In this document: piece after piece, positions 1 to 53,463 of the stretch
How the letters are laid out: every line of letters starts with the position of its first letter
How positions within the stretch are numbered: position 1 is the stretch's first letter
DNA from: Obrimoposthia wandeli
Lineage: Eukaryota
Direction: 5' to 3'
Assembly: GCA_977020255.1 (NCBI GenBank)
Contig: CDROCS010003752.1
Location: forward strand, 124,001-188,000
DNA: 64,000 bases
The notes under the pieces: model-generated
The model's input: only the letters and a program-made list of their open reading frames with translations
Databases searched by the model: none
What the model was told of the DNA's origin: nothing
Translations under genes and position numbers: made by a program

Positions 1-462
1 TCAACAACTGTTTGATCTCTAGGATTTTTAAATAAAACTAATTAATGCACATTAAGATTTTTAGTTCTATGGTTACCTCCTTGGTGAAAAAGATTTCGAG
101 TGATAAATATAACTGTTACTTCACGATGTCTTGCAATCTTCGTAAATAAATTATTATCCATCATCCACCGATTTTCAATCAACACCCAACGACTTTCACC
201 CAACACCCATCGACTTTCACCTATCACCCATCGACTTTCACCCAACACCCATCGACTTTCACCCATCACCCATCGACTTTCATCCATCACCCATCGACTT
301 ACACCCACCGTCCAACACCCATCACCCAAGGAAGTCTATGATATACACCCGTCCCGAGCCTTTCGTGCCGATAGGTGAAATTTCACTCCACACACATGCA
401 CGGTTTTAAAAGACAGATGGGGGGAGGGGTGTGTGGATTAGACCGGACACATCCACCTCACT
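1..462 (-). mobile_element. Terminal remnant of a second Maverick/Polinton lineage (ATPase fragment + minisatellite + terminus), runs off window start
   Basis: About 20-158 encodes NNLFTKIARHREVTVIFITRNLFHQGGNHRTKNLNVH, nearly identical to the ATPase at 13731-14381. 380-462 matches the right end of the mini-element at 50155-50242 (ccacacacatgcacggttttaaa...ggattagaccggacacatccacctcact). Confidence 0.8.
159..330. repeat. About 21-bp minisatellite (cacccatcgactttcacccaa-like units)
   Basis: Direct tandem units are visible; they give the WV(L/I/M)GESR 7-aa repeat in ORF 42..329. Confidence 0.9.
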
Positions 463-986: not shown

Positions 987-3900
987 TCAGTTGAACATGA
1001 GGTCCTTATACTCCCGCAGCAAGGTCACGATGCTGGTCGAGTAGCTCGTTGTCGTTCGCACTACTCGAAACCTGTCAGCCCGTTCGAAATTGGACTTCAC
1101 CATTTCGTAGTATTTGCCGTCACTCAGAGTCAGCGTCTTCAGCAGGGGACACTTCAACCTGTATCCACAGACAGATATATAAACAATACATACATATCTA
1201 CTAATCTTACATTTATAGGACTAAAATAATGTTTACTGTTACTAATTCTTTATTTTAATTTAGAAATTCACTAACAATTCATTAAATTTTAATACAGTCG
1301 CATTAGGAAGAGAAAAAGAAGATACCAACAGTCTTTTGACCTCAATTAATCATAGAGTGAATCAGTAAGACAGTGTGTAACAAAACAGGGACAGCAAAGT
1401 CGGGACCAGATAAATTTCTACAATTTTAACTGTCAGTCAGAGCAAGTTCAGGAAACTGTAAAGGATATAGAATTCCGAGGAAGACACAATTGTTGAAGAA
1501 TCGAGAATTTTGACTGACGATCAGAGCTGACAATTTACGTAGGAGACAGAAGCAGACATAACTTAAGACAGAATATCTTTGTGTAAACTTATAATAATTT
1601 ATTAATTGCTTTTCTACTAATTCCTTAACTTGGGAGTTAACCATCACAGTCCTTTCAGTAGTAAGTAAAGTCGTATACTTGTAACAGTCTCCAAAGATTT
1701 TTTAATATATAAAAATACTAGAATGCTCCTGCTTCGTTTCAAAAGTTAATGAATAAAGTTTTAGGAGAATTAAACTCGAAAGAAGCCGTTGTATATCTAG
1801 ATGACATATTAATATGTTCGGAGACAAAAAAGATATGTATAAAATGATACAAAAATTTTTTAAAAGAAATAATTAATGTTGGATTAAAATTGAAATTACA
1901 AAAGTGCCAATTTATGAAGACAGCTAAAATTTTTAGGCCACATAATTTCAGGAAAAGGTAAAATTAACAAACAGATCCGACTAAAATTTGAAGATATTAA
2001 AAACTTTGAACGACCGAAGTGTGTAAAAAGTTACGGAGTTTCCTGGGTCTAACCAATTACTAAGGAAGATTTATTAATAACTATTCTGAATATGCGAGAC
2101 CATTAGAGAAAATATCAGGTAGCAATGAGAAAAAACCTTTGGAATGAAACATGTGAGAACTCATTTCAAACTTTAAAAAGGAAATTAATAAAAGCACCAA
2201 TTTCGATTTATCCTGATTTTAAGAAAGATTTTTAGTAAACACCGATGCCAGTTTTGATAGAATTGGTGCAGTATTATCTCAAGTAAATGATTTGGGTCAT
2301 GAAAGAGTAATATCATATGGGTCAAAGACTATGAATCCTCATGAAACAGGTTACTGTATTACAAGAAAAGAAATGCTGCCCATTGTGTGTTTTACAGATT
2401 ATTTTAAACACTATCTCTATGGCCAAAGATTTCGTCTTCGAACTGATCACAAAGCTATAACTTTCATGATTAAAACTAAAAGCCAATAACATCTCAATTT
2501 CAAACGTGGTGCAATCATCTGAGTAGACTTGATATGGTTTCAGATAACAGAAAATGTGAAAACCACTTAAATGCTGATGTACTTTCCAGAAGTAAATGTG
2601 GAACTTGTGTTCAATGCAAAACTAATCATGAAAATCCAAAAACAGGGAATCTGAAAACAAAAGTTTTATCACTTGATATCAAAGATATTGGCATAGAATG
2701 GCAAAGTAATTCCGAAGAGATAAGAAAATTAAAAGTAAATATAGAGATAGAAGATAATTATAAAATTATTAATAATATACTAATGACTAACAATGATAAA
2801 GTATGGTTACCAAAAGAAAGTATAAAAGAGTTGATAATGCATGTTCTCAAAACTCTATGTCATGCTGGTTGGAGAAAAGTAATTGAATACATTTCTCATA
2901 GATTTGACTTCGTCGAAAGATTAAAATTTATCAAAAATATAATTCAAAGTTGTGAAAATTGTAAGAAACAAAAAGTAGTGACAACAAGAACAAAAGAATC
3001 AAATAAAGAAAATTCGGATTACAGTCTTTTTCGTAGCGTATTTATAGATTTTTGTGGGCCATTAAAAACAACATACAGTGGAAAAATATATAATTGGTAT
3101 AATTGATCAATTTGATTCTAAAATTTGGAGCTCCAAGAGAAATACATTGTGATCATGGGAAATCATTTGAATCAAATTTAATGAAAGAACTAACAAATAA
3201 ATGTAAAATTAAATTATTATTTCAAGTCCATATCAGTAGGTAGATGTGGCACTTCTGGCACAAAGCCCCCCCCCTGAGGACAAATTTTTTTAAGGTCAAG
3301 TTGAGGACAAAAAATGTAGGTCAAGTTAAGGTCACGGTGAGGTCAAGATGTAGGTCATGGGAAAAATGTAGGTCATGACCTCATAAGATCATGACCCCCC
3401 CCCTATGCTCAGGAAAAATGTCTTTGTCCTGAAAGACACACATCAAGTAGGGGGATGTGTGTCTTTCAGGACAAAGACATTTTGAGCACAGTTTAAGGTC
3501 ACGGTGAGGACAAGATGTAGGTCATGACCTCATGAGGTCAAGTCAAGTTAAGGTCAAGTTAAGGTCATGACGTCATGAGGACAATGTACTTTAAGGTCAA
3601 CTTAAGGTCATGATGAGGACAATGTACTTTAAGGTCAACTTAAGGTCATGATGAGGACAATGTACTTTAAGGTCAACTTAAGGTCATGACGTCATGAGGA
3701 CAACTTAAGGTCACAGTGAGGTCAAAAATATTCTATTTTTAGTAACATTCTTTAAATCTATATATCTTTTTATCTAAAGACTGTATTAACACCAATTCAA
3801 CAAAATACATCTAGTGTGTGTGTGTGTGTTTTATAATTTAAATTAAATTATCTACTTATAAAATAAAGTATTATATAATTTGATAAATTTATTTAAACTA

Positions 3901-6900
3901 AATTAAATTAAACTATCTACTTATAAAATAAAGTATTATATAATTTGATAATCATGTTTAAACGTTCCTATATCTATCTAACAAAGACAGTCACGTACTG
4001 CATCTATATTGCAAAAACCTGCAAATTTATGTAAATAAAGACAAGTATTTTAAACACATATATTCCTTAAAATCACAAAGGAGAATAAAAATATGTACAA
4101 CACATATAAAAAGTTTATACAACCTCATCCGGGTATAAAAAGTGACCATAGGCGACTGAACGGTTTTTCTCCACCCACTTGCGCTTATCATCACTACTAC
4201 TTAAGGCAATTTTACTTAACCTTAAAGTGAAAAGTTGATGATTTAGCGAGCTTATACGTTGTTGTTGTACACGCTCGCTAACGCCACTCTCATATACGGC
4301 TAAGTAATACGAGTGCCTAATACTCGTCTGTCGGAGACTAATACCTTTCGCTCTCATCTGAGATTCACCTGCTGTAGTCTCTAGGCTATATGATTTTGGT
4401 CGTAGAAAAATCCCTTGCCTATAACTAAATAATCCCTTACTCTCATCTTTAAATTTTCCTATCGCTGTATTAAGCGTCGTATAAAGCGGATGGGTTTTTG
4501 GAAATTTCGAGGTATCCAACAGTCCATCGGCAATCATAGCAGGTAACAGTGATTCTTGAACATTGACATTATTACACTTCAAGAAAAAGCTATCAGTGTC
4601 ACCCGCTATAATTCTAATGTCGCAGTTAAATTGAACTCGATATTTCTCCAACTGCTCATATTGTAGCTCATACATACGAAGTTTGCTTAAATCTAATACC
4701 GCCTGGCCCATGTAACTAGGACGATCCAAAACAATATTTTCCTTATCCAGTAAAACTGCAATAAGGTCCGTATCGATTTCAATTGTCCTACGAAAGTGGG
4801 CTTTACTGCAATAGGTAACCAGCTTCTGTGGAGTATTACAATTCCGGAGGTTAATTCTTTTCATCAGATTCTCAATGAGTTTTCCAAATAAAGAATTCAC
4901 CTTCAGTTTATAATAATCCCGCTCGAAATCTGTTGTAGCCGCAGCTCTTTTGAGAGAATTATCCTCAATATATTTTGAAAAAACATTAGTTTGTTCAAAC
5001 TGTATTGCTCTATATACAAAATCTACCTTAGCACCAATTCTAACGTACATTTGTAGCAATCTAGAATGCACAACATAATGTTTCTTAGGGTAATGTGTTA
5101 ATAACAATTTTTTAGTCTTACACCCTGGTGGACGCTGTTTAATGGGAGCAAGGGGAAGATCGTCGAATTTATTATGAAGCTCGAAGGGAATGGATAAATC
5201 TATTTCCAATAAATGAGCGAAGCGACTACAGGATAAATCTGCTGATTTTAAGCTGGAAATAATATTCCCCAAATCTAACCGATCAGTCACCCAGGAAAAG
5301 TTACCACAAGGTAAAAACTGGGACATAGCCCACCCGTACAAATTATTTACATCAATGTACAAAAGTTCTGTACCATCGATGGCGTCAACGCGGTGTTCAT
5401 TAACAAATGTCCTACCCCCGCGAATCCCAGACCGGAAGAGTCGGTACATTTCTGGATCCTGTATTAGCTCGACTCGCACAACGGGAGCAGAAGAAGAAGC
5501 CGGACGAAGCAGGGATTTGAAAGCACTCGCGAAAGTCAGTCCTGGAAATAAAATCATTTATTAAAATCATTGTGAAAATCATTGTGAAAATCATTGTGAA
5601 AATCATTACTTTGAAAATCATCTATCTAACAAAGACAGTCACGCATCTATATTGCAAATACTTGCATCTTTATGTAATCAATAGTAACATTTATTCTTGT
5701 ATATATATATGTGTGAGTATCTAACAAAGACAGTCACGCATCTATATTGCAAATACTTGCATCTTTATGTAATCAATAGTAACATTTATTCTTATACATG
5801 TATATATATATATGTGAGTATCTAACAAAGACAGTCACGTGTGTGTCTAACAAAGACAGTAATCAATACCTACAAAGATAGTCACGTGTGTCTAACAAAG
5901 ACAATCATCAATACTTACAAAGACGTGCTGCATCTATATTGCAAAAACCTGCATCTTTATGCAATCAATAGTAACAAGAACTACATTTATTCTTATACAT
6001 GTATATATATATATATATATATGTGTTAGTGTCTAAAATTAGAAAAAACTAGTAGAATACAAACCAGGAATGGAGAAGAAATTGAGTGGCTCCAATCCAT
6101 CGTCAGCAATGGCCTTGGTCCGGAATGCTGTAAACACGTCTGCTAGAAGGTAGATGTCCATCTTCATATAGACCAGCATATAGTCCCAGAGCGATGAGCA
6201 GCCGCTCTGAGTCCAGACCATCTTCGCCATCTGATATTGTGCTGGCTTGATCTTTTCATCCCACTTTGGCGGTAAGCTGGTGATTGCACGAAGAGCAGTC
6301 TCTGATACTGCCATATCGTATGGGAAGATTCCCTTGGCGCTCACCAGATGTTGCGGGAAGACCGAATGTGTAAGAGGAGTCACACCCAGGTTTTTCTAAG
6401 CTGCTGTTCAAAAATTGAAGGGAATCGATGAAACGTATACAGACTCCTCCAATATACACCATCATAGCCTGGAATTTCTCTGTTGATTGAGGTATAACAG
6501 ATACATTCCAGTCGGGAAACTTGCATAGTGCGTGCTTAAATATGTGGTGCATGTCATAACCCATAAGATTGTGAAAAATGACGGGAAAAGATCGATTGAT
6601 TCTACTTGATAAGTTGCATTTCGTATGCGCTGCTCCCAGGTATTCGCCAGTCATGTGATCGTGATCTCGAACGTTGTTTGCGAGTTTCTTCTTACACAGA
6701 TAACAGATTCTTGCTGCATTGAAACTCGATACCTGTTCCTGTGTGAGTTGTCGCATCACCTCGATCGCATGCTTCTTGTACCATGGGAGTACAACCTCTT
6801 TCACCAAGTCCTCTAATTTCTGCAAAAAGGATACCACACAAGATTCTCCGGTAAAGACCGAGTAATCATGTGTATACCCTCTCGTGGCTGCAACGGGAGA

Positions 6901-9900
6901 CATGAGCATATCGGCCGAGATTGGAAGTTGAATCTGATGGTGGATTCCATGTGGCGGCAGCACAGCCTCAAAGTCCGCGTAAACAGCAAAAGGCGGAGAA
7001 ATCGTTTTTGAAAAGTCCTTAAACTCAATATGCTTCTCTGTAGGCATTGAATAAAGCGTTGTATGATCTAAATTCATCCTACAGAGCGGAACGTGTTTGG
7101 CGTAACTTATCGGACTACGGAATCCATGAAGACACTTATGGCACCAAGTACACCGAATGCAATTAGATACACCTTTGTTCCTATAATTAAGCAGCCTATT
7201 GAGTTTAGGAATACCGACATAATGAAAATTATCATTATTTTCTAAAAGGAGAAGATTGATTGGCTTAGCGTCCGGGTTTGTGGTCCTGTAAATGACATCC
7301 ACATAGGGATTTTTGAAGATATCCCCATCTGTTTGCACATTAGAGAACCTATTGAATGTAAATACGTTGATTGAGAGAGATGTATTCTTTCTCTCAAATC
7401 GCGGTATATTACATAGACGCATCGGCATCTCATTCTCATCAAAAACTAATTGACTCAAAAGGGCATCATATTGCTTAACCCGCTGAGGATTAGTACGAAA
7501 TACGTCGCGGAAAAGTATAGATAAGATACTATAAAGAAAGCAGAAAGTGTTTGAGTTCTGCACATTGATAACGCAATGTGACAGTGCTAACTCAGATGGA
7601 GTAGGTATATAACTATAGATAGTTCATTGTCGTTGTTTTAGTCACAACAAACGAAATCTCCAGGAAGCGGTTCACTACCCAATTACTGCTACTTTGAGAA
7701 TAATTCTCAATCTTCTTGTTGATCCCATCTACTCCCGCATCTATAAACCCCTCATCTATGGGGAGCCCTCTATTGGAAAAATTCCAAGCGCGTGTTTCTC
7801 CAATATTGGAAAATTCAACACGCACCCCGAATTGAACCTTGCAAGTCGCAAACTTGCTGACTGTGTCCCTTAAGCTAGTCAAAAGGGATACAGGAACTTG
7901 TAAATCGATGAGATTGTCATTAGAAACATCTAATGACAATGTCTCAATCGTACCCCGAAGACTAGTCTTACGCTTAACAGCATTAACTTTGGAAAACTTC
8001 GCAACAGAGCTACCTGAAGTGGGCATAACACTTCTCTTGCGGGTAGATGCTGGTAACGGCGCGGGGATCATACCAACTGGAGGAGGCATAACTGGAACCA
8101 TTGGTGCAGCAGATGGTGGTGAAGCAACTGGACTAGAAATTGGAACAGCAGCAATTGGGGTAGATACTGGAATAGTAGCAGAAATTGGGGCAGCAATTGG
8201 CGAAGCAGCAACAACTGGACCAGCAACCCGAGAAATAGTAGCAGATCTATTCTGAAAGATGGCCTTCTTGCCACGTTGCTGGAAATGACGAAGATGGACA
8301 CGATGACGCGCCACAAACTCCAACCAATCAATCTCCTCCACGGAGAGACATACTGGACATACGTAGAATTGTTGTCCGTTGAACTTCTGTCCAAAGTAGC
8401 TCTTCATTTTTCCGTCACATTCCTTGTGACTCTCCTCGAAGCATAATTCTTTGTTCATATTGCAATTCTAGAAAGAAATAAATTAGCAGAAAAAATAACA
8501 ATAAACTTACCATTTTCAATTTCGTTTATAATAGGGAATTATTTGTTGATTGATGCTTGCTTATATACTATTTTCGAGCTAGTATTAAGCCAATCAGATT
8601 CATTCATTATTTAAACCAACCAGATTAATTTAAAACAGAATAGTTTACTGACAGATGTGAGTAGTTGAATTTTCATTAATATTTAAATAATCCAAACTAG
8701 CTGCAAAGCATTTCTTGTATGCACAATGCTCGCCATGTTTAATATATGGACAATTGATATTTGATGGATTTAATTGTTTTAATGTTTTCGAGTAATTTAT
8801 CACTCTAAATTCAGGAAAATATTTATTGATTGTCTTTATTTTAGCTCCATTATTTTCATCGAAACATAGAAAATTGATTTGGATACATCACAACAACGTT
8901 TTATTTCCTCAGTTATTTCTTGTATCTTGAAATAACTATTACCATCAACTAGTTTTAGTCGATGGTAATGCTTAATGAGATATCTATTTATTTTTCTTGA
9001 TTTTCTATTCATCATGTCCCATATGGGTTGCATTTTAAAAACATAATGTTTAGGATAGAAGATTGCATCCACATCCATTATACATAGTTCTTTTATTACA
9101 AATTCAGTATTATTATCAATAAAAGCTTCAAAATCAATAAAATAAACAGACATTTTTATAGCAATAATTTTATTTGATATTGTTTATATCTATTGTTTAT
9201 GCTTTAACCAAAGCAGACAGAGTTGTCCACATGACTGTGTTAAAACATTTTGATAATGTTTCTTACTAAAATGTACTTTCTTTCCAGAGTCAAGTACTGT
9301 AGATACTAATTTAGAAGGGTAATATATCCCAAAGGGGTCAAAAACAAAGATTTCATTTTCTTTAACATGTATTGCAATCCAATGTTCACCACGCAAATTA
9401 GATGAATGTGTATTGATTACATATCCACCTAGTCGAGTCAAAGAGGGGATGTGATCAAGGCTGTAGACTCCATTGAAACGCGAACCGAGTAGTTTTCTTC
9501 CGCTTTTTGTTATCTCGTCCGAACTAGAATATATATTAATTAATAAATTCAAACTGACTTACTTCATTTATATATCTTCTTTATTGTTTTCATTCTGTTT
9601 ATACTAGTACTGTTCCTCTCTTGGTAATTTGAACCTCAGAATCGAATACTCCATAGATTATAATATTAGTAGGGTGTTCAAGTGCTTTTGAAAACTTGAT
9701 TTCTACTTTCAAATTTCCCTGTTTAGGGATTTGAGCTTGATTAATATTGAAATCAGGAGAGAGAACAAATGTGAACAGTGTATACTTGTCCTTGAAATCA
9801 GTCATTGAAATTCTAATATTAGCATCCTTATCCAAATGACCAAGATTTCTAATTAAAGATTGCACATAAGAAAACACATAATCATCGTTTTCAAAGTCAT

Positions 9901-12900
9901 TCGTATAAGATTCTTGATAATCAATATTTCGTGCAAGTTTAATTGAACTCACATTCATGTGTCCAAATTGAGAAACCTCATTTTTAGACTCACCTCCATA
10001 GGTAGAAGTGTTTTGGAAAGCAATTAAAACAAAGTTTGGAAGTTGCATATCACCAAAAATCTGATCCTTGTAATAAGATAGTGCTCCCGTAGGGATAGCG
10101 TGAGAAACAAGATTAGTTTTTCTAATAGGATAACATGCATTTTGCTTCTCCAACCCCATTCGATGTGCAACAAGTACAGATGGTTTCACCTTTACTCGTC
10201 GAACCAGCAGTTTTGCTTCCGTAATCTCAATTGCGGTTTTAATAGTATCAGCGCAAACAACACTAAAACCTACTGGATTTCTCTTCATTCGAATATGTGC
10301 ACTTACACCGGGTAAAAGATACTTTGGTTGCATAAAGAAATCCAAATGGAGACTCCCACAAAGTGACAATACTTTAGACTTTGCAATCGAAGCAATTCTT
10401 CTTTTTTCGTCATTGTCAAACCCAATTGCATCAAGATTAATCAATTTCGTATCATTACCGTAATTCAACAATGTTTCAATCATTGCTTTATGGGTGTAAC
10501 TAGTATTATTTCCCTCAACTTTCACATTATTGAGACTGAGAATCACATCCTTGAAAAGAGTATGCAACATGTAATTAGCTGATTTGATATCCATACCATC
10601 ATCCAAATCACCTCCACCTTCCTTTGTAACTTTCAATTTAACGAGAAATAAACTATCATTCAAATCAAGATATTGAGTATTGGATCCATTAATATTGAAT
10701 TCTAAATCCGGAGAAGATGTCCCGTTAACCGTATTTGTTGGAAATATTTCTTCAAAACTAGCACTATCAACCACAACCTGAGGTATAGGTTTATCGAATA
10801 TACACAATTCAGTTTTAGCACAACTCATTACTTAAAAATTGTTCCACCTAGTTTCAAACGTTTGTTTATACCCGATGCTTTAGATGTTTTCTTACGTTTA
10901 TAACCACTTCCCTTTTGAGTTTTCTTTTTCAAAAATTCAGCTAGACTTGATCCAAGGCTGCATCCTTTAGTGTGGGAAGAAATTTCTCATCACCAGACAA
11001 GTATTTTGATCCAACATTAGCAATAAATTTCCCGAGTCGCTTGAGTAGTGGGAAAGCAAAGCGACCAAAAACCTTCATCCATCCTGATCCATACTGTTTT
11101 CCGGCAAAATAAGGCAAATCACCTCCTTGCATCGGTTTACTATACGCATCGATTATACTTGAATCAATCATATTTTTCTAAAATGTATTGTTAAACTTGT
11201 TTTAGCTCCAAATGAAAATTTAATTAATCTTCCTGAATCATCCCGAATGTTAACTTCAATATTGTTTATAGAAGAGGAACTCACAGGAATATACATTGGA
11301 TTTTCAATTGGGATATGTATAATATCTCCATACTTGTGCTTTTCCTGTTGAACCCAAATAGATTTTATTAATGGAAGTTTATTTCCACCCACAAATATCG
11401 GTTCAGTAATACTTGTGTAAATATAAATCTGATTATACGCATTACTTAGCTTTGCCCGATTAGATGCTCGGAAAACTTTATTAAGATTTTTAAAACTGTT
11501 TTCATTGAATCCTATAATTGTAGCTAAATTTTTATTCATATTTATTTATTTTACATGTGGTTTCAATTTAAACTTAATTATCTCCTTTTTAACATAAAAG
11601 CTTTCAAATATATTATCAATATTTTTCATGAAATATTGACAAAGACTTTCAACATTGGAAAATAAGCAATCATTTTCGAATGCATACTGCTCACGTACAT
11701 CCTCTTGATTATAATGATGCATCTTTAACTTTAATGTCGGTAAATCATATTTTTGATTTGGTAATTCCGATTCATAAAACATACTTTCAATAGGAGCTTC
11801 TTTCATACCGTAATTTAATGCTAAACTTTTATTATCAATTTCTAAATTGAAAGCTTGTCCCGTAGTGCGAATTATACAAATTTTGTTTTCGCCGCTAAAG
11901 TAAATAACATATTCACTATTAATTGGAGTTAAATACTTGACGAAAAATTCTCCATGTTTCATTTTCACACCAGCTTCAACTTCAGTTTTTATTCTTTTCT
12001 CCGCAACATAATCTATAATTGACCCTCCTTTAATGGATAGAGGAGAGTAATTGAAAGAAAATTCCGTCAGAGCAGCTTCCCAATGCCCAGGTAAATTGAT
12101 TGAGCTTTGATAATCAATACTAAAACTATTAGCAGTATTATTCGGCTGAGTTAATGGTGAACCATTACTTGGTAATACAACATACATTGAGTTCATTCTA
12201 TTTGAGAAGCTAATATCCAACTAGGTTCAGTATATCCATGCCACTTAACATGATATTGTTTATGCTTTCCTCTACCTTTTGTCTCTAAAATTTCTTGGAT
12301 TCTATATACATTTGGTTTCTCAGGCCAGACTTGTAATTCCTCATGATAAAATTTACCCGTGATTACATTATTGGTTTCATCCTCAATGAAATACATTACC
12401 GGCATACGTTTATTATCAATTTTAGTTATACGAAATACTTCATCGCTCCAATTCTCTTTGAAATTCTTTATAAAAGGAGTAGTACTAATTTGAGAAATAC
12501 GTACATAATCACCAACTTTATACTTGGGTTTCCGCGCAACTTGACTTTGATTACGGCATTGCCAAATTTCCATAGCATTCTCATCTGTAACATCAACGGG
12601 TCTCTTTCGGTCTAATGATGAGTGTTCACTATGATTGTATGCATGTATTATTTGAGGTAAAACAGTAACCCATGACTTATTTCCCTGCTTTGTGAAATAC
12701 TTTTTCAAACGATCTCTCAATGTTCGATTAAAACGTTCAACTAAAGCGGCTTTATATTGGGAAAATACTGAGTAATGATTAATGTTAGTTTTTCAATAGT
12801 GTTTCAACATGTTTATTATAAAACTCCTTTCCACTATCCGTTTGGAAATTTCTTGGTTTTATTTCTTTAATCAAAAGCTTCATTGCGGCTAAAACATCGG

Positions 12901-15900
12901 TACCAGACTTGGACTTTAATGGAATAGCTCGCGCGAATCTGCTAAAGACATCAACACAAGTTAAAATATATCGATATCCGTCGTTAATACTCGCATACGG
13001 AATCATTTCCATCAAATCTGCTTGCCATAAATCATTCGGGCCGCTCGTTTTGTATGATCTCGTTGGGACGTCTCATTGGTTTGTTTAAGCTGTAAGCTAA
13101 TTGATTTCTCAACCACGCCTGAGTTTCCTGCTTTGTCTTCTTTGACTCTTTTGCTAATTTTGAAACCCCTGTGTAACCGACGGGATGACTTGGATCGAAC
13201 CATATTTTCTCCATTGCAGCAAGACGATTTGATTTTTAAATTGAATTTAGGAATAGATGGAAGTGATCCCATATATAAATTCATATTATTGATTCGAATT
13301 TATGTTTATAATCATCGGTTTATTAGTCTACTAGCAAGTGCACCAACTATTGAGCTAATAATTGGTACGAGAAATCCTAAAAATCCACCACTTTGCTTAT
13401 AAAGCAACTTACGTTTACCGATTCGTGTTTTGGCATGAAACAAAGCAAGTAGAGGTTTCTTATGCCGATTCAGGTTAGCCTTGACAATTATTTTACCAGA
13501 AACTATTTTCTGTATCATATTAAGTAAATCATCAATTACAAAAGTAGGGAATGATTTAAGAATAGCTGGGCGGCGAATAGCAGGTGCACGCATGAGAGAA
13601 TTGAAATAGGCAATACTCCTAGATTTCTTAACAACAGTTCTTTTCGATTTTTGAGCAACCATTTTCCTTGCACTTAAAACTGATTTAATCAATTTTTTAA
13701 CTTCGGGTTTAACAGTTTTCTTTTTAAAATTCATCTTCTCAAAACTGGTTTCTTTGTTTGTTTATAAACGGTTATTCCCGATGGATTGAATACATCAGTT
13801 CTATCTCTAAAGTCATCGGGACAATCTTGAGTAAAATCAATAAAAATGTATCCATGAGGAATAGTAGTTGCATCTTGAAATGAATCAATTAAAAACTTTC
13901 TATTATTCGGGTAAGCTTGTCTTGAAACAAAATCAACAACCGTCTGATCACGTGGATTCTTGAAGAGAACAAGGTAATGTACATTTAAATTACGAGTTCT
14001 ATGGTTCCCTCCTTGATGAAATAGATTTTGTGTGATGAAAATAACAGTTACTTCCCGATGTCGTGCTATTTTAGTGAATAAATTATTGAAATCACTCTCT
14101 TTATTTGCTTCTTGATATAAATCATCAATAACAATAACATCATGTCGTTGTAATCGCTCAGACCAATTATCATCGAATCCATTAATGACTTTTATATTTT
14201 TGATTTTCTTAAACTCTTTACTGGTTAAACCAGCTTCTCCATCTCCTCCCTGATGCCAGTATATTTTATTAAACTTAAAACTAAAGTATTTATTATTTTG
14301 CAGTAATTTACATACAAAGTGTGTTTTCCCACTACCACTAGGACCTACAATCTGAAAAACTGAATTATTTTTTAAGTTCATATTAAAAATATTAGATTAT
14401 CGGGATAATGTTTATAAGACAAAACTATTTAAAATATTTTATTACGAAACATCCAGCAACAAACAATAAAAAACTCTTCTCGTAGAAAAAGCTCCTTTTC
14501 TCTTCTTTGTTTGCGAGTTTCTTCTGATTGTATCCCTGAATGAGAAGATTGACTGCCTTGTCGTGCACCATTCTTCTTACGTGCTCCTCCAGGGGTAGAT
14601 TTGAGACATCAATGAGTTGCAGGACATCTGGTTCTATGACATTCTTCGAGATGAAGCTCTTCACCGCCTTGTCAACATCTTGATTGAAATAGTTTTTAGA
14701 CATAATGATGATGAAGTAAAAAGTAATCTGCTTATATACTATACATCTGAAATCTGATTGGTTAATAAATACACTGACTAATAAAGACACTAAAGACACT
14801 GACTAATAAAGACACTAAAGACACTGATTAATAAAAACACTGATTAAAGATAAAGACGAATAAAATTTACACATAACGATTAAAAATACGTATTTGATGA
14901 AGCATAGCTTCATTAGGAGCAGCAATAGTCCGTTTAGCTTTAACAAGATTCGAAGCAGCAGTAACACCAATCGAATGAGATAAAAATGCAATATCAATGC
15001 AAGCAGCATGTAAACTACCATAATGACCACATACTAAAATCTTACCACCATTTTCGATAGTTTCTTTAATTATATTATTAGTCTGTTTATAATACTTCAT
15101 TATTGTTTCTCCTAATTTTGAGTTTACAAAGACAGAAGTATATTTTAATTTCTTATAAGATATTTTATCCAGTATAGATGTATTGATTACATGAGTGAAA
15201 TTGGAGTTCAAAATATTAGTTTCATCAAACCCATCTCGATAATTACCAATATATAATTGATTTACTAAAATCTCACTCATCGCTGTTTTGTTTAACTTTT
15301 CTACATTAAGTTGAGCAAATCTAGCACTAAAAAACTATCAAAAAGATGGGTCATGTGGTTCATTTCCATACTCGAAGCATGAGCTATTATGGGTTCCATA
15401 AAAGCCAAAGCATTTAAAAAATCTATCCGTCTCTTATCTTCAATAATTGGATCTATAATAATTTCTTCTTCTATCGTCACTTCTTCTATCGTCACTTCAT
15501 CAATAGTTTCTTCTCTTCTTATAACTGTTGTTGTTGTTGCTGGTGGTGATGATGTTACTGATGATGTTGCTGGCGATGATGTTGTTGGCGATGATATTGC
15601 TGGTAGTGATGATGTTGCTGGCGATGATGTTGCTTCTGGTGCTGAATTGATTTTCTCCATTTTATCAATTCCGAGTCAATTTAGTCTTATATATTAAACA
15701 AGGTTAGATTTCATTGGAGCATCAGTTTCATCATATGATTTGATTGGAGTATTATTCAATCTTTCCATTGTACTTAACATCTCATGTAAATGTAGTTGAT
15801 GACGTAACCTAAAGAGTTAAATAAACTACATATAAATATTACTCATGATTATTTTTCCTAATTAATGCATTGAGAATAACTGAAGCAAGATCTTTTAATG

Positions 15901-18523
15901 CATCCTGAACCTCTTTACATTCAATAATTTCATCCATTTTATGATAAAGCAAATCAAATATTGTTTATAACCCATGAAAAATCTATTTTTAGACCACAAC
16001 TATTTGCAACATTACAACGTTTGCAACTATTTGCAAGTATTGACATGTGATGTCTTTGTCTCTAAGATAAATCTATTTTTAGACCACATTACAACTTTTG
16101 CAACATTACAACTATTTGCAACTATTTGCAAGTAATGACATGTGATGTCTTTGTCTCTAAGATAAATCTATTTTTAAAACTATTTGGTTTAGGAAATAAA
16201 TAACACAAGTGTGAAGATCTATATTAAACAAAATACATTCAATCAGATACTCATAGTTTAAAGATTTAACACCGAGTATCATAATCTTCCCGCTAGCAAA
16301 AATGTTCACGCATAGGGGATTGTATTTGACGTATCGAAGTCCCGGGAAGATTTCTGGCTCGTAAACAGCTTCCGATCCCATACTCTTGCTCATCTTGTTT
16401 AGGTTTATTGATGTTTCTAGATTTCTGCTGAGACTGATTGATTGGATTCTTTCGATTTTTATATCAAAAGGAAGACTGCTTTCATCCAGCACTGTTTTGC
16501 AACCCATTATTCTGCATGTACCTAAATTATAATTATATATAAATGTAAAAATAAATTACCAGATTTGAAAATGATAATAGTGTAACCTTCACACTTGAGT
16601 CGATACTGATGAGGCTTCGAAGTCCGAAATGGTAAGTGTTGGTTGTTACTTACAACCATTCCCTTGTAATTAATATTCACTAATTTGATATTGTGAAGTA
16701 GCATTTCTGATTATTATAAACTGATTTCTTCTATTTATACAATTTGAACATCTATTTTTAGATTTGCTTAATTGCCTATGCTATGAAATCTAATATTTCT
16801 TACTCGTCTAATGATAATTGTCTTGCAATATGGACATGTAATAAAACGATCTGAACATTTAATACACGTGTTTAAGTGACCGCATGGTAAAAGTGCCACG
16901 GAAATCGCATCGCTCATGCAAACAACACATTCGGGATTTGGTAAGAGGTACTCGAGATAATTTATCCGATGTTTTGATTCAGATTTTATTTCTAAAGACC
17001 TTAAATCCGTTATAAACTCATATATAGAATCATATTTGTTACCGAATGTTTTAAACCTATTAAGTAAAACGGCTTTGATTCTATCATGACTGTAATCACG
17101 TTTCAGCAAAACTATTTGACGAGTTTCCATCTGAGCATCAATTTCATCATTACTAATATGATATTCAACAATACATCCGTTCTTGATTCCCATACTAAAT
17201 GCTTTACAATCTCGAGTATGAAAGATCAGACATAGTATCAATAAGGTCAAGTCGGGGTACTGCTTTCCGACAGAAACAACATCGATAAGAATCATTCCAA
17301 ATATATACATTATCGAAAATCGATAATGTAGGTATTTCAATACCATTAGAATAATTATTGCGCACAATAACTACTTTATCCATTGGAGTTGTATCAAAAT
17401 CAATTTGGGTGGTGTTGGAATCAATTATTGGTACGTTTGAAACATTCATTTTCAAAACAAACGGGCATCTTGGGAAAAATAGCTGATGCTGTTTCATTGG
17501 TTTCAGATAGTACTCCCATCCCGATATTCCTCCCTGACAGTAAATACACTTTACATTATCTTTCGAATCATCGTGCTTGTAAAATCCTGCTTTTGCTAAA
17601 GCTTTCTTAAAGCTTTGGAGGATAAACAATTGAATATTTCAATTTATAATTGTCAATATGAATTTCGAAAAGCTATATCTACCTATGCATACATATTATG
17701 GATATGAAATGCACTTTTTGAAGAAAGCTCATAACTATAATTTTATTTTTCCTGTCAACATCGAGCCGCTTAAATTTGATTTTGAAATATCAAATTTGAC
17801 TTCTGTGGATAAAGAGAGAATCAATATTCTCCTGACTCAATTCGGAATCAACTATGCGCTTCAGGAAAACAAATTCGTAATCAAAGGATCAACTGCCACT
17901 TTCAAGCATGAGAATGGAACAATATACGAAGCACCTCCTCCTAAGCTAGAATGGATTCTCTCAATCAGAATTCAAGGATGCAAGATCGGGCCCAGTGGAT
18001 TGGAAACTACGATATGGAAAATAATTGATGCTGTTAGAGTTGACTAATAAATTTTTGTGTCTTTATTTGTATTATTTTATATATATAAAAACAATAGTGA
18101 TACTTTAATATTTATTATGAAAATGACTAAAAAACCTACTAAATCATTAAAGACTAAGGTTAAAAAGACTATGAGTAAAAAGACTATGAGTAAAAAGAAA
18201 ATCATGGAGGGTTTGGGTATTCATATGATGGCAGCAAATCTTTTAGGTAGATGGTTTGGTGGAGTTGATAAAAAAGCTATAAAGCACAAAAAGAATGTGG
18301 ATTATTTGAGAGGTATACAAAATCAGAAACGAGTGCAAAAAGGAGATGGTATACAAAAAGGGGATGGTATGCTTGATATTTTTGTAAAATTAGATAAACT
18401 TACAAAAGCATTTGAAAAGGATCCTAGTGCCTATCTTGGTCCAAAACTAAACATTTTAGCAAACCAACCAAAAACTTTGTAATTACATTGCAATATAGAT
18501 GCAGAGTGTCTTTGTTAGACACT

Positions 18524-18580
<57 letters not shown>

Positions 18581-21500
18581 AAGAATAAATGTTACTATTG
18601 ATTACATAAAGATGCAAGTATTTGCAATATAGATGCGTGACTGTCTTTGTTAGATAGATATAGGAACGTTTAAACATGATTATCAAATTATATAATACTT
18701 TATTTTATAAGTAGATAGTTTAATTTAATTTAGTTTAAATAAATTTATCAAATTATATAATACTTTATTTTATAAGTAAATAATTTAATTTAAATTATAA
18801 AACACACACACACACACTAGATGTATTTTGTTGAATTGGTGTTAATACAGTCTTTAGATAAAAAGATATATATATTTAAAGAATGTTACTAAAAATAGAA
18901 TATTTTTGACCTCACCGTGACCTTAAGTTGTCCTCATGACGTCATGACCTTAAGTTGACCTTAACTTGACTTGACCTCATGAGGTCATGACTTACATCTT
19001 GTCCTCACCGTGACCTTAAGTTGACCTCATGAGGTCATGTCATCACCGTGACCTTAAACTGTGCTCAAGGGGGGGGGTATGCTCAAAATGTCTTTGTCCT
19101 GAAAGACACACATCACCCTACTTGATGTGTGTCTTTCAGGACAAAGACATTTTTCCTGAGCATAGGGGGGGGGGTCATGACCTCACGAGATCATGACCTA
19201 GATTTTTCCCATGACCTCATGAGGTCATGACCTACATCTTGACCTCACCGTGACCTTAACTTGACCTACATTTTTTGTCCTCAACTTGACCTTAAAAAAT
19301 CTTGTCCTCAGGGGGGGGCTTTGTGCCAGAAGTGCCACATCTACCTACTCATATCATCATTCAAGTAACAGACAAGTTGAAAGACAATTTCGGACAATCA
19401 GAGATTCATTAAATTTAACAATGAAAGATAAATGCTCTAAAAATTGGGCTGACGTTCTTCCAGAAGTAGAGTTCTCTATGAATACTACTGTACAAGCAAC
19501 AACAAAAAGAGTCAAATGGAATAATATTTGGATTTTTTTTTCTTGAATGGTTTGAAGAAAAAGAAAGAGACGAAGACACATTTAAAACCTACAAAAACAG
19601 AATTAATCAAAATAATGAAAATAACTTAATTGAAAATAATTATCGACATTTTAATATCGGCGATGAAGTATTGTTAAAAATATATGTTCGAAATAAGGAT
19701 GATAATCGCTAAGAGGGTCCTGGAGCCATAGTAAAGAAAATACATAATAGAGCTTTCAAAATAAAATTTCCCAACGAAATATGTAAAGAAAGGAATATAA
19801 AATGAATAAAACAATTTAAAACACCAAGGGAGATCTAATAGATTGTGTAAACTGTGGTTTAAGGACCTACGGTCTTTAGGTAATATGTATACTGGTGAAT
19901 GTGTGATTGTGTGGTATGTTTATATTGCTCAATAATGAACTATATATATCCTCAGCACAACAATGAATGTTGTTTATTTATTAATATAGTTATGCCTGAA
20001 CTTCAGTCTTCTAACAAGATTCTTTATAAAATACAAGACAAAATCCAACACATGAACCTTCACATTTTGAAACTACACAGGAAAGGCCTTTCACAAAAGT
20101 CCTATATCATTAAAAACTCACAACTTAAAAGCTTCCATAAGAAGTGTAATAACTCTAGTCTCAACAGTTTTATAGGTCCTTTAGTGGGCCCGATAATTTT
20201 GACACATTAAATGGAGCTACTTAGTCGTTTTTTCTCATGAAACCCAGGGAAAATATAGACGGGTGTAATCAGAGGCGGACCCAGTTTTGATAGTCAGGAG
20301 GAGTGAAGTATCTTTTGACTACATGTTCATTTTATTTTTCCAGATTTTTCATGTTTGATTGTGTGTTTCTTTTAATTGGTTAATTTAATTTATTCAATGT
20401 GTATAGTTACAGGATCTGTAATTGTATTGGCTGTTATTTTTATTTTATCTAAAGCTGCTTATTTGAAAACGGTGGCGGTTGCTAGCAAAAAAAAGTTTGT
20501 CTTCTGTTCACTTTTTATTTATTTCGTTTTTATATCCCGAGGTTGTTCATAGTGTTAGTCTTGGTGTTAATTTCAATTTCAATGTATCTTAAATATTAAT
20601 TATTACATAAAATAAAATTACCTCATGAACTTAAACTAATAATGGACATTTTGCATTTGTTTCGAACTATCAAATAAAAATGATTCCATATTAATCATTA
20701 TCTTGTAATGAGCTACGTTTTAGTCAATAAAAATATAAAAATAATATATTCTAAGATATTTAAAATTTCACTGAAAAAAAACTTATACACATTTAGAATA
20801 TATTTAAATTGTCTACAGTACATTATTTATTGAGTGCCCTATAATAATAAAAAACATTTTGAAAAATAAAAGCACTGATTATTTAGATTGATCTTGAAAT
20901 CTAATAATATTTTTTCATTTTGTCGGCACATACTCTGCTTACTCCCTAACTAGGTTCGCCACTGGTTGTAAACTACTTGAATTTCTTATATTTTCTAATG
21001 TAATATTTTGTTGCTTAAGGGGTTAAGATTTTGAATCGAAGTGACACTATTTCATATACCTAATATTACATTAGACGATAAATTTGGGAATAATAGGTCA
21101 AATTTGTCAAAAGTGTATATTTGTATTTTGTTATCCATAATGTTAATGATACAGGTCCAAAGTGTTGGAAGGGCTAGGTTTCAGTGTACACCATGATAAG
21201 AAGACACACCTGATGTGATCGATGAATTTGCGGCTCTTGTCGCTGAAGCGGATCGTGTCGGGGTCCCACTGGATCTCAAGGGCCTCTAGCTGGGGACAAT
21301 TCTGTGCAAAGGCCTCCACGATCTGGTCGATGTGCACTCGCGTATTGTACTTGTAGAACCATCCATCAGCAGCCCCCAGGACGCAGATTCTAACACGGCC
21401 AAAGGCCATCATAGGACGATGAGCATATAACACTGTTCATTATTATTTATATTCTAGGTGTTCTGAGTTGAATTTGATGAATGACTTATGATGAAAGATT

Positions 21501-46694: not shown

Positions 46695-49600
46695 TAGTCT
46701 ACAACATTTATTTAAAAAGTCAGCCTAAATTTCAGAAAATCCTCAGATAAAACAAAAAACTAAATTTTGAGGAAAACTGAAATTTGGAAAATGCGCACAC
46801 AATGGACAAAGGTCCCACCAACCTGACGAGTAATGGGACTTCCATCATTGTTGACATTGTTGAATACGCTGACCATGACAGTGAAATTAAATAAAATTCC
46901 AATTTGAGAGTTGTATAGGTTTCTAGGAGCTTATTCTCTTGTTTTTCTTTTTTTTCCCGATCGTTTTGCAGAAGTGCCGCTAAAATGACGATAGTTCCTC
47001 TACCGCCCCCTCAATCAATCTGTGTGCTAGTGCATGTGCGCATGTGCACACAAGTGCACCGGATTTTCTGAGTGTGTGAGTATGTGTGTTGGATTGATCG
47101 GGATCTGGTGCACCAAGCCCCGACGCTTGCAGACATTGGTGTGGATATGGCAGATCTAAACCCACCGTACTTTTCCCGAACTCACCAGTTTACCTCGTTA
47201 ATCATCGTCCTCGTCTTCAGAATTTCCCGAATCTCCACTAGTGATACATCAGCGCCAGTAGACTTTGTCTGTGACATTCGCAGCGGGGATATTTGTAAAT
47301 AGTGGTTATTTTATATAGGATCAAATTCACTTTACTGTTTGACATCAAAATTATCCCGCAAGTATACTATTTATGAAAGTCGTTTTCCATTTTCTATTTT
47401 GTGTGATTATTCCATATTAAAAGATGACACACAAGTGGAGCAAGAACAGTGATTTGTACCATGTCCAATTTTTTTCTCCCACATATTTTAACTCACTAGC
47501 TAAATATTTTACAAATGAAGCAAATTTATATTGGTTTTAATCAATATTTCACAGTAATCCATTAAGTTGCTGAAAGTGACTAATACATCCTGAAAGAAAT
47601 ATTTATGTTGTTTATGTAAGAGTGTCTGATGTGCTTTGAACACAAGCATTTAGGCTGTGTTTCGTCACCTTTTCATATTCTGGGCTCACAACGAGTAATT
47701 ACGGCTTAACACATTATCATTTCTACAGTTCATCAAACACTTCTTCTTTTCTTCTTTCTGAATTTTTACACTATCTTTTCTTAAACTATTTATAAACTTT
47801 GAATAATTGATATGTCATTATAAAAATAAAATGTTTTATATCTGAAAGTTATTAATTCTAATTTTATCCGGTACGTGCAAGGCTGAATTTACAAGTGGTC
47901 TTGTATATCTACAACCCTCCGGGACCCTCTAGTGTTTGAAGAAAATAATTAAAAGTAATTGGACATCTCAAGTTGACCCGAGTCTTTTAAACTCAATAGC
48001 CTCTATTGGATGTTGATGCATTTTTATATACATATATATTTTATTTAACAGTTTAGGGAAGCATTGATGAACCTTTCTAGTGAAAAATTTAGGAAAAAAT
48101 AGATCATATTTTTAGCTCAATTTTTTAAAGCACATTTCACAAACATCCCTCGAAAAATACTTAGCTACAGAAACTTTAGGAAATAAATTAAGAATATTTA
48201 CCATTGGTATTCATATCTAAGGAAATGACTTGAAAAAAAAAATTTATGAAAAAACTTAAGGGAACAAAGAAACTTCATTTATATAATTAAAAAACTACAT
48301 TTTTGGAGATAGTAATAATTTTAAGTTGATTAAACATTTTTAATTGGAATATACTTCAATTAGATTAATAAATTGTTATAATGAAAATATTCAATCCGAA
48401 AATTATATTCGTTTTTTTAAATTTAAAAGACAATTTTGAAAATAGTATTTAAAAACATTGATAATGAAAATACATAAAAATATAATAATATCACCAAACA
48501 TATAACATAACTATATTAATTTAGATTCTGACAGCGTAATCTACTTTTCGACCATAATTATTTTCATCTTCCTCAATTAAATTTGCTACAGTGTTAGATC
48601 TACTTCGAAGATAATAACTTCCTTGACATATGCTTCCTTGGAAACCTGATGTTTAAGGTTTTAAATTCTTCAAAATTTTCTTGTTTTACTATAATATTTT
48701 TTTACTATATTTATTTTTGAATGTTAATATAATTAAAATTAATATTTCTATTTTTGTAGCAATTTCAAAACGTGTTAACTTAAATAATATTTTTTTAAAA
48801 ATCTAACTTCTCCCAATACATGCAAAATTTATAAGGAGCTCCTTAACTAAAGATTTTTGAAGTAAAGGATCCTTTAAAGTCAGGAAAGTTTTTGAATATG
48901 GCCCTTAATTTTACATAATTTGGTTTACTTTACAAACTTTTACACACTTAATGTCATTAGTGCAAAATTGCTCATTTTGAGAAGACAGCTTAAATTGCTT
49001 TATAATTATCATTTGTCTATTTGAAGTTGACAAATGTTAAGGTTCAGATACGGTGACAAGTGATAAAATAAATATATAAATCAGTAATATTTTTAATCCT
49101 GTTCAGGGACATTAAGTTGATTAAATTGGATAAAAATTTTAAAAATTAGAATAAGAGAGAGAGTTAATTAAGTCTAAAATACTCCGAAAATGGAGTTACT
49201 TAATAGGACACTTGGTTTCAATATTCAATTTAGTGCAATTCAAATAATAAAACAAAGTGCAAGCATAAGTCACAAATATGCAGGCCTCTATGACGCTCAA
49301 TATTTTGGAATAAGAAATATAAGAAGTCGTTAGGGGTCAATACTATTATTATATTTTGTGAAAATTAGTAAAATGGTAATTAAATATTTAAGGATTACTA
49401 TTTAACGATCGGTTTGCGTGGTAGTTGAATCTACGAAAATTTTCACTAGCAAATATACTTTTCGATTTTCTGAGAATTTTTTCGCCTTCTCTTTTTTATT
49501 CTTGTAGCTGATTTGTTGAACCGATTGAATACCAGAGACTCAGTTTAATAAATACCTGACACTCTAGATACATTTCAGTAAGATATAAACAGCCGATAAA

Positions 49601-49921
49601 AAATCCTGAAATTACCAATAAAATAAATAAAGTTAAGTACCGAAATCAATCATAATTGTAGTTGAATTTTTCATGTCTCATTAAAAATGCCGAAGATTAA
49701 TTTTTGTATAGACACAAGAGTGAACATATGCAACGAGTGTCCCGTAAATTCTTTGGAATTAAGTCTGTAGAATATACTATTTCCATATAGTTTAAGAGTT
49801 CAAAATTGAGTATAAGGCCCGAAGATAGAATATTTTAACTTTATATGTTGAGGACTTTTAATTTAAGAAGTATTATGAAGAGTTCCTGTGACATCTAGTT
49901 CATGTGGCTTTAAATAATATG

Positions 49922-50242
49922 AGTAGGTGGATATGTCCTGTTTAATCCACACCTCACCCGGGGGTACCGCTGTCCTACATGTGTGTGGATTGCAATTTTG
50001 CGCATGTGTGTTTTGTATTAACCCTCCTTTCGGGGAGAGAGGGTCTCAATTTTTTAGCACCCTAATGGCACCCCGGTCACACCCAACTTATTTTCAAAAT
50101 TCTTGGGACCCCCACAAGACACACATTCGCGAAATTTCAATCTACACACATTTAGAAAATTTCAATCCACACACATGCACGGTTTTAAAGGGGGGACACG
50201 GGTACCCCCAGGGGTGGATTAGACCGGACATATCCACCTACT
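49922..50242. mobile_element. 321-bp non-autonomous mini-Maverick (MITE-like)
   Basis: TIRs AGTAGGTGGATATGTCC...GGACATATCCACCTACT; perfect 6-bp TSD AATATG (49916-49921, 50243-50248); right end homologous to 380-462. Confidence 0.9.
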
Positions 50243-50419
50243 AATATGGGATACTTAGATTCTGACATTACATAAATACATGAAAATGGTTTCCTAGTTG
50301 ATACAAATAAGATACACCCTTAACATATTGGTGTATAACAAAAAGTCTGATGATAAACAATATCTTGAAAACGAACGTATATAATCATGTTAAACTATTT
50401 TTAAATTGTTCTAAATATT

Positions 50420-50860
50420 TAATTAAGGATTTTTTTCTTTTATACACAAAGCCTCATGCGTTGTTCTTTCGAAATAGTTCCGAACATTTTTATGAATGAC
50501 TACAAACTCTATAAAAGAAATAGCCTTACTCATATTTTTACAGCCAATCAAGTGGATAAAGATGGAAGACTTCCTACATACCTGACCGTGTGGCATCACA
50601 TACACAACTTTGAAACTTTTATACTAAAATATTGCTGAAGGATTTCGATGAAACGTTTGTCTAAAATCATATTAGATAGTTTAAATGAATGGGAAACAAG
50701 CATATTTTTGAACAACAGTTTTAAATGGCATATTTCTTATTTTTATGGAAATATATTTTCTTATCTGAAAGATATTTTGATAATGACTGCTTATGCGTTA
50801 GGAATATTTATTTAAACTTAAATAGATAAATCTTGTCTCATTTCCATTCAGGTTTTCTGC
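50420..50860 (-). mobile_element. Penelope-like element remnant (GIY-YIG C-terminus)
   Basis: SSIFIH...FVVIHKN..NYFER..HEALCIKEKNP resembles the Penelope endonuclease tail. Confidence 0.55.
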
Positions 50861-51949: not shown

Positions 51950-53463
51950 TGTCTATGGATTGTCCATTATCAAATATTTAGCTAGATTGGATGGAATTTC
52001 ATTCACCAGGTACATGACTGCATTTTGTAGTTTGGGAAGTAATTTATCATCACCGGATAAGGATTTTGATCTAACATTACCGATAAATTTCCCAAGTCGT
52101 TGGATTAGAGGGAAAGCAAAACTTTCATTCATCCAGATCCATACTGTTTCTCAACAAAATAAGGCAAATCACCACCTTGTATAAGTTTACTATACGCATT
52201 GATTATACTTGAATTACCACTATAAACAATATTTCGATAATGCTTTTATTAAATATGAATGATCAAGATAGAGCAAGCACATATATAGGTTCTGGTAGTA
52301 ATTTATAGGCTAATATGGATTATAATATAAATAATATTAAACATATTCATCCATCAACGAAAACAATAACTAGACCTACGCGAGTAACCGAAGAACGTAA
52401 GCCCTTTAAGGATTTGACTAATACTAAACGATTTTCATAAACAACATTATTAACATAATTAGAATCGAACTTTAAAGGTTAAACAATTGAATATTTGAAC
52501 TTTAAATAGCAAATATGAAATTCGAGAATCTGAATTTCGAAAAGCTACATCAGCCAATGTTCAAATATCACGGATATGATATGCATTTTTTTGAAGAAAT
52601 CTCACAGCTATAATTTTATTTTTCCTGTCAACATAGAGACGCTTAGATATGATTTCCAGGTATCAAATTTGACTTCAGTGGATAAAGAGAGAATCAATAT
52701 TGTCTTCAATCAATTCGGGATCAAATGTGAGTTTCAGGAAAACAAATTCATAATCAAATGCTACTAAATGCTACTGTTGAGAATTAAAATATTCCAATTT
52801 GAATTTAAATCAATTTATCAAAGTGCCCACAGTCGAACAGCGATTTTTTCAGTTATATCCAGTTCTTATATTGTGCTTCGCGGTAGGAAAATTGTTCTTT
52901 ACCACCTTTAGATAAAAATATATAGTTTTAAAGAAAGATACTAAAAATAGAAATATCCTCAAAAATACATGTATTTTATAGGCTGAGTCCTCATTAGGTC
53001 ATGACATCATAAGGTCATTGGTTGCCACGGTACCGGTTGTCATGGCAACTTGACCTTGTCCTGAAAATCACATAGCAACATGACTATGATCTGATATTGA
53101 CTATTTGTGTAAACAGAGCAAAATCATGATTCACATTAATTGGAAAAAAACTTGAGTAAAATTTGTATTTTTGTCGTATAATTTTTTAAAAATATTTAGA
53201 AACTGTGAAAAAAAACTTTCTGAACCCTCTTGTAAAATACAAAACGGACCAAAATATTTAAATTTGTAGGTTATATTATAATTTTTGATTTCCATAAATT
53301 TTAGGCATTGCTTTTTCGTTTGTTTTATAGAAAAATACGTATATATGTAATAAAAAAAAGTTGATTTGTTATTTTTGTAGTTATATAATACTTAATTTTA
53401 AAGGAAATATTAAATAAAATTAAAATTAAGGGGGTGCTTTGTTCCAGAAGTGCTACATCTACT
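51950..53463 (-). mobile_element. Internally deleted remnant of a sister Maverick (cupiennin-like fragment, 129-aa ORF homolog, right terminus)
   Basis: 51970-52215 aligns with 10930-11165; 52490-52767 aligns with 17623-17890; aggtcatgac repeats at about 52995-53015; ends ggggtgctttgttccagaagtgctacatctact, like 19312-19349. Confidence 0.88.

Follow-up and report, generated by a model that had tools for sequence, protein, structure and literature searches.

The window, a stretch of 64,000 nucleotides from Obrimoposthia wandeli (contig CDROCS010003752.1, positions 124,001 to 188,000), contains a gene-less 321-bp element, a 16-kb Maverick of another family and, at its very start, a fragment of a Maverick packaging ATPase accompanied by a terminus that resembles the right end of the short element (Table 1). 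A relic with internal deletions, akin to the 16-kb family, lies at 52018-53463. Pieces of it match 10958-11164 and 17613-17885 at ~80%, and its right terminus is followed by AATATT; no left end of this relic was found. The host portion of the window includes exons of an F-box/LRR-like gene (21143-31126, minus strand; F-box-like domain, E 3e-13), and the 321-bp element is located ~19 kb upstream of the F-box exon.

Table 1. Coordinates of the mobile-element features in the window
Feature	Position	Strand	Basis or remark
Broken Maverick packaging-ATPase piece, residues 99-149, one stop	3..155	-	runs off the window start
Sister terminus: block B, different spacer, block A plus one extra base	378..462	-	
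Maverick of another family, 16,115 bp	3235..19349	.	TIRs ~750-800 bp, duplication CATATC
Left 6-bp target-site duplication copy, AATATG	49916..49921	.	
321-bp non-coding element	49922..50242	.	boundaries, fold, window scan, no Pfam match
Left outer terminal block (block A, 29 bp)	49922..49950	+	sequence comparison
Left GC-rich spacer	49951..49975	+	GGGGGTACC common to both spacers of the 321-bp copy
Left subterminal region, two 25-bp-spaced units	49976..50016	+	
Central non-palindromic part, single-copy in the sample's contigs	50017..50112	.	depth, shuffles
Right subterminal region, three 25-bp units	50113..50189	-	very high summed contig depth
Right GC-rich spacer, highly variable among family members	50190..50213	-	contig comparison
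Right outer terminal block (block A), family terminus at 50242	50214..50242	-	contig departures
Right 6-bp target-site duplication copy, AATATG	50243..50248	.	

The initial annotation had placed 321 bp between perfect 6-bp duplications, and the boundary check confirmed this. Among the boundary pairs tested near both ends, the one in Table 1 was the sole pair at which the terminal bases were fully complementary (12 of 12) and a direct repeat flanked the element; other boundaries with a 4-, 5- or 7-bp repeat were rejected because their terminal bases were incompletely complementary. The probability of a random 6-bp identity between two flanks is ~0.0006. When the entire window was scanned for inverted ends next to a 6-bp direct repeat, 34 candidates emerged, including the 16-kb Maverick and the 321-bp element; the rest were 31 palindrome artefacts inside the repeats of the 16-kb Maverick and one weak AT-rich pair. 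Within the window, no paralogous copy of the flank of the 321-bp element was present. With a GC content of 47% the element differs from the window as a whole (31.5%). Its sole long frame, 105 amino acids from stop to stop, had no Pfam match at E values up to 1, and the element is therefore not an autonomous Maverick/Polinton. A single Rfam match (MIR2646, 23.8 bits against a cut-off of 245) was dismissed as a hairpin artefact.

The termini form a perfect inverted repeat of 17 bp, and 27 of 29 positions pair over the outer block. Aligned with each other, the left arm (~95 bp) and the right arm (~130 bp) gave 96 matches, 9 mismatches and 7 gaps. Folding of the single strand yielded -78.6 kcal/mol (z = -12.2), a value equalled by none of 100 shuffles. 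The palindromy of the central ~96 bp was at chance level, with 445 of 2000 shuffles scoring as well, so that the earlier description of the element as largely an imperfect inverted repeat holds for ~70% of its length and fails for the centre. An inner inverted repeat, GGGTCTCAA, was attributed to chance.

From the terminus inwards, each arm consists of block A (29 bp), a GC-rich spacer (~24 bp) and units that recur every 25 bp, two on the left and three on the right; the left subterminal region lacks a 14-bp stretch and one unit that the right side possesses. The first 14 bases of the left block A are those of the 16-kb Maverick except for two purine changes. Block B, at 50157-50189, comprises the outermost right unit with a TTTTAAA tail; it is conserved and recurs at 378-410. 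The motif GGGGGTACC occurs in the left and right spacers of the 321-bp copy, and the spacer of the sister terminus (411-433) is different. This likeness of the two spacers, a perfect inverted match of 9 bp, indicates that both arms derive from one mobile unit. Between copies the spacer was very variable and blocks A and B were conserved. In the contigs described below, positions 50190-50213 displayed many substitutions and indels, a depth down to ~3,500-5,000 and loose ends at 50191, 50210 and 50211.

The 16-kb Maverick served as the reference for comparison. Its integrase gene, split over frames near 12790, contains an rve core above the Pfam cut-off (E 8e-13). Pfam matches also exceeded the cut-off for an A32-type ATPase and remained below it for a type-B polymerase and an adenovirus-type protease. 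Searches of solved structures with the C-terminal part of the integrase and with the putative capsid, a label derived from size and position only, gave no match. The element is inserted in a Gypsy-like integrase region (Integrase_H2C2, 2480-3106), and an inverted second copy of this host repeat at ~59480-60190 represents a clean empty site. CATATC is a true duplication, since the paralogous host repeat contains it once (60119-60124). The two arms of the 16-kb element differ at 21 of 708 aligned columns.

Several further features of the 16-kb Maverick were observed. Its cargo includes an unusual gene with a TBP domain (16157-16555, minus strand; PF00352, E 1e-12), a dual-specificity phosphatase domain (14867-15334, minus strand; PF00782) and, in two overlapping frames at 16768-17638 on the minus strand, BIR and RING domains that resemble an apoptosis inhibitor in pieces. 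Internal repeats at 5620-6045 have an inverted match at 18504-18659, reminiscent of a second set of inverted repeats inside the first. A hairpin at 3412-3484 in the TIR includes a sequence close to the terminal 14-base motif (3446-3459), and the protease gene has another such sequence at 9420-9433. The string AAGACACACAT, common to the 321-bp element and the TIR hairpin, was discounted (E 8.5).

The 321-bp element is very probably of Maverick type. This assignment is based on its 6-bp duplication, its AG...CT ends, a sister terminus that closes an ATPase piece, and its nATATn target. The duplication, as read in one copy, has the length characteristic of Mavericks/Polintons. The end motif AGTAGG differs from the vertebrate (AGT)2 motif at one of six positions, and the 16-kb Maverick starts identically. 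Compared with the start of the latter, the 321-bp element has 1 mismatch in 11 bases, as the initial annotation had noticed in general terms, then 2 in 14 and 12 in 30. None of 82,080 host 11-mers came within one mismatch of the terminal 11 bases. The common 14-base pattern, which was derived from these same ends, occurred six times at up to one mismatch, always inside the 321-bp and 16-kb elements. A Repbase rule, in the accessible text stated for two non-autonomous elements, asks that duplication lengths be equal and that terminal bases 1-11 differ from those of a member at no more than one position (PMC4455052); the 321-bp element agrees with the element at 3235 in both respects (1 mismatch in 11). 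The two represent different families, because their similarity drops after base 14, and the 12 mismatches in the first 30 bases rule out descent of the short element from the 16-kb Maverick. Their targets, AATATG and CATATC, and the AATATT adjoining the relic end at 53463 conform to nATATn, to which 1.4% of host 6-mers belong. The flank of the fourth terminus (ACAAAA, from 463) falls outside this pattern.

The initial annotation had also linked the end of the short element to a terminus attached to an ATPase fragment at 1-462. This relationship is real: the right end of the 321-bp element matches 378-458, with 76% identity in an alignment of 89 columns (E 2e-14 in a comparison inside the window). 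The ATPase piece shares 94% amino-acid identity over 51 residues, and 79% at the DNA level, with the ATPase of the 16-kb element. It is separated from the sister terminus by ~220 bp, across an array of 21-bp tandem repeats; this array (158-307, 7.1 copies) marks the junction of the two. No left Maverick end was found between the ATPase piece and the terminus, and past 462 there was no Maverick protein match and the ATPase does not resume. The simplest reading is thus that 1-462 is an internally deleted Maverick with an end of the 321-bp type. It is the one case in the window of family ends attached to Maverick core genes, and no second case was found among 46 metagenome ATPase loci.

Copy number was assessed with contigs of three runs (X1, X2 and X3) of one sample, probably the one from which the window was obtained, compared with 49480-50680 at 80% likeness. 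The fitting contig records numbered 7,077 in X1, 5,144 in X2 and 2,392 in X3; X1 shows no difference from the window, which may have been derived from it, and is therefore not independent. The middle of the element behaved as single-copy sequence. At 50054-50094 the depth in X1 was 47.1, compared with 46.7-53.2 in the unique flanks, and it was 114 and 380 in the neighbouring bins. One 310-bp contig ran unbroken from the left flank through this middle to 50182, and no other X1 contig covered 50054-50094 at 80% likeness. X2 and X3 had no contig over the middle and were uninformative here. The 321-bp lineage is accordingly represented by one surviving copy.

The arms gave a different picture. Summed depth reached 1.3-2.1 million on the right arm and 8,000-31,000 on the left, the latter partly due to a flank repeat; it is not a copy number, as head-to-tail joints reveal tandem arrays that inflate it. 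Division by 31, an assumed worst-case correction for overlap, leaves ~1,100-2,200 ends across the three runs. By summed depth the data suggest that the genome contains thousands of these ends. The head-to-tail joints of the terminal unit (50242->50155; 50230->50216; 50179->50156 at depth 684) lie within 50136-50242 and suggest tandem arrays built from family ends.

Many contigs left the element exactly behind 50242: at least 125 in X1, 67 in X2 and 20 in X3 among the 18 of 553 entries listed. The flanks of the 125 X1 contigs differ from one another, as shown by an agreement of 0.38, and their number is a direct lower bound for the ends that is firmer than the estimate from depth. Among the same listed entries, 87 more contigs in X1 and 22 in X3 continued through the AT core of the host target and departed behind 50247. 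Position 50242 was the commonest listed departure behind the right end in X1 and X2, and in X3 it was 50247 (22 against 20). The ratio of the 50247 class to the 50242 class was 0.70 and 1.1, and simulations with random flanks gave 0.008-0.094. Flanks of the 50242 class began with the six letters TATATA, TACGTA and TACTTA. Ratio and flank letters point to a symmetric 6-bp AT target, an indication that is only suggestive, as longer matches align more easily and may inflate the 50247 class.

Three joints, each within a single contig, implied further two-ended members. The joint 49937->50207, with 27 letters between, corresponds to a member of ~79 bp if both ends are complete; 50011->50222, in a contig of 2,674 bp, implies a two-ended member of up to 2.7 kb, and 49936->50227 a third such member. 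An isolated relic is not supported in view of the abundant ends and the other short two-ended members. The initial annotation had taken a single copy as evidence against a mobilised element, which applies to the middle and does not apply to the ends. Its suggestion that the element defines the minimal cis requirements is weakened as well, because 321 bp is probably not the minimal form given the joint of ~79 bp.

Relatives were also sought in other sequence collections. The 17-base end motif had five matches in viral contigs, none extending beyond the motif, which were taken as chance. Longer end motifs had no match in metagenome contigs, in viral contigs (where block B was the query) or in prokaryote genomes. 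Close relatives of the Maverick ATPase, at 65-81% identity, were present in metagenome contigs; contigs that share a single name prefix carried several different variants, suggesting that some hosts harbour many Maverick lineages. In viral contigs a single-protein query found no ATPase relatives, and an alignment query, made up of the query and 61 of 120 listed matches, found four distant ones. The 46 metagenome ATPase loci (157 kb) contained no match to the 321-bp element, to the end at 161-470 or to a Maverick-type terminus beyond AT-rich noise. A full-size helper with ends of the 321-bp type was not seen in the metagenome, viral or prokaryote contigs.

Our preferred reading is that the 321-bp element is an ends-only, non-autonomous representative of a Maverick/Polinton-type family that is large, old and variable in length, and that it was already short when a helper mediated its insertion; the probability of this reading is roughly 0.5. 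A retroviral-like Maverick integrase would have carried out the insertion, cutting an nATATn target with a stagger of 6 bp. Loss of the interior was most likely the work of the element's own machinery, either during extrachromosomal copying from paired ends or by excision. The short product would then have been inserted by the proteins of a full-size helper, a course that we favour slightly over loss in place, and the 321-bp form itself either never amplified or lost its siblings. The outer block A is likely to combine the integrase attachment site with the start of protein-primed copying, and the 25-bp subterminal units with block B are likely to provide an auxiliary binding region. Both blocks are candidate binding regions on account of their conservation from copy to copy, in contrast to the variable spacer between them. 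The adenovirus origin likewise has core and auxiliary parts and offers an analogy for blocks A and B. More tentatively, the family as a whole could be a MITE-like swarm of thousands of gene-less elements down to ~80-320 bp, the shortest comprising hardly more than a pair of 29-bp end blocks, which would be copied or excised and then inserted in trans by the virus-like Maverick integrase. With the same reserve, each lineage of such a swarm would have its own spacer and interior and would retain the two binding blocks. Against our preferred explanation stand the single-copy middle, the lack of a joint across an empty site among the 15 of 18 joints listed, the lack of a full-size helper in the collections searched, the tie to Maverick genes at one locus, a duplication read in one short member, and the frequency of internally deleted Mavericks in the window (1-462 and 52018-53463).

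A rather unlikely rival is loss in place: a full-length Maverick inserted, its interior disappeared by abortive gap repair following excision or by ordinary host deletions, and the 321-bp form never moved. The AATATG duplication would then date from the full-length insertion. The single-copy middle, the lack of an empty site in the contigs and the two further internally deleted Mavericks are in keeping with this course. So is the apparent age of the arms, which carry 9 substitutions in 105 columns plus 7 gaps, compared with 21 in 708 columns in the 16-kb element. Gap repair, established for P and Ac/Ds, produces singletons of many lengths that keep both ends. After loss in place, however, the middle should match other copies of the parent, and it matches nothing. 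Relatives should share the middle whether the element was short on insertion or shortened afterwards, so that the singleton middle is neutral and does not discriminate between the two. The arms imply TIRs of ~100-130 bp, whereas those of the full element measure 750-800 bp. Hundreds to thousands of ends also far exceed the vertebrate Maverick counts (median 8, maximum 287), which, in the accessible part of their source, are protein-based and would miss ends-only copies (PMC8097293). That several very short forms retain both ends speaks for an end-dependent process, since end-blind deletions would rarely yield them.

It is improbable that the family is a MITE-like one of another DDE superfamily and that the terminus at 378-462 adjoins the ATPase piece by chance. 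Cut-and-paste families typically have short TIRs with subterminal tandem units, as found here; the similarity to the 16-kb element is gone after 14 bases, and among thousands of ends one beside a Maverick relic would not be rare. Yet no left end separates the ATPase piece from the terminus, the ATPase is not resumed beyond it, and the nATATn target is shared with a confirmed Maverick. Other groups with 6-bp duplications, IS3EU and GingerRoot, have TIRs of 100-150 bp (PMC6839031) and termini TA..TA or TG..CA in the accessible text of their descriptions (PMC6839031, PMC10045372). Unlike them, the 321-bp element ends in AG..CT, on which ground membership was rejected, and it lies in an AT-rich target, whereas the GingerRoot targets described there are GC-rich. 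Least probable is the proposal of the initial annotation, a uniform 321-bp satellite family amplified in trans. Clean ends with a duplication and the abundance of the ends would suit it. Siblings, however, would cover the middle at the 90-99% likeness of the ends, and there were none in X1. The single-copy middle thus leaves a uniform same-length family unsupported, and the predicted same-length copies and empty sites were not seen in the contigs; no joint skipping the element occurred among 15 of the 18 listed, in one sample whose contigs drop variants.

The preferred reading, an ends-only Maverick inserted short, can be set against known systems. Like autonomous Mavericks/Polintons, the 321-bp element has a 6-bp duplication, AG...CT ends, TIRs and an nATATn target; unlike them, it is gene-less, measures 321 bp instead of ~16-17 kb and has far more numerous ends. 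It resembles MITEs in being short and non-coding, in its inverted ends and target duplication, its strong fold-back and its abundant ends. It departs from them in that no uniform length or common interior was seen, the middle being single-copy and the members varying in length and spacer, and in its likely helper, a virus-like integrase system. The named non-autonomous families Polinton-1N1_DR and Polinton-N1A_NV are several kilobases long. As far as their sources are accessible, they are listed under these names (PMC9341505; PMC11296320), the N suffix denoting a non-autonomous family in Repbase (PMC4455052), and Polinton-N1A_NV still encodes a capsid protein (PMC11296320). The 321-bp element likewise is without the full machinery, but unlike these families it consists of only the ends and ~96 bp. 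Vertebrate Mavericks, in the portion of the survey available, have (AGT)2 or (AG)3 ends and 6-bp duplications (PMC8097293). From similarly partial sources, TIR-only Polinton remnants are described in C. elegans (10.1101/2024.01.15.575659) and fragmented Mavericks in a midge (PMC8504770), Tlr1 has been called a non-autonomous Polinton (PMC5499653), and the accessible text on the anole reports no apparent non-autonomous Maverick copies (PMC3014272). A MITE-sized Polinton family was not found in the accessible literature, and subscription papers, supplements, Repbase and Dfam may hold such entries. What surprises is how abundant the ends are and how widely the members that carry them range in size (~80 bp to 2.7 kb), not the single 321-bp copy.

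To our knowledge, Maverick excision, copying and integration have hardly been tested, and the required end sequences have not been mapped. If the short forms arose in place, the element would be an ordinary relic in a Maverick-rich genome. If the preferred reading of an element inserted short is true, the abundant ends with two conserved blocks and a free spacer would constitute a natural map of minimal Maverick ends and of target preference. Mavericks would then be a source of miniature elements, as classical transposons are, and protein-based Maverick counts, such as the median of 8 per vertebrate genome in the accessible part of the survey (PMC8097293), could miss most of the footprint of these elements. 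Some unclassified repeats with 6-bp duplications would likewise be Maverick derivatives.
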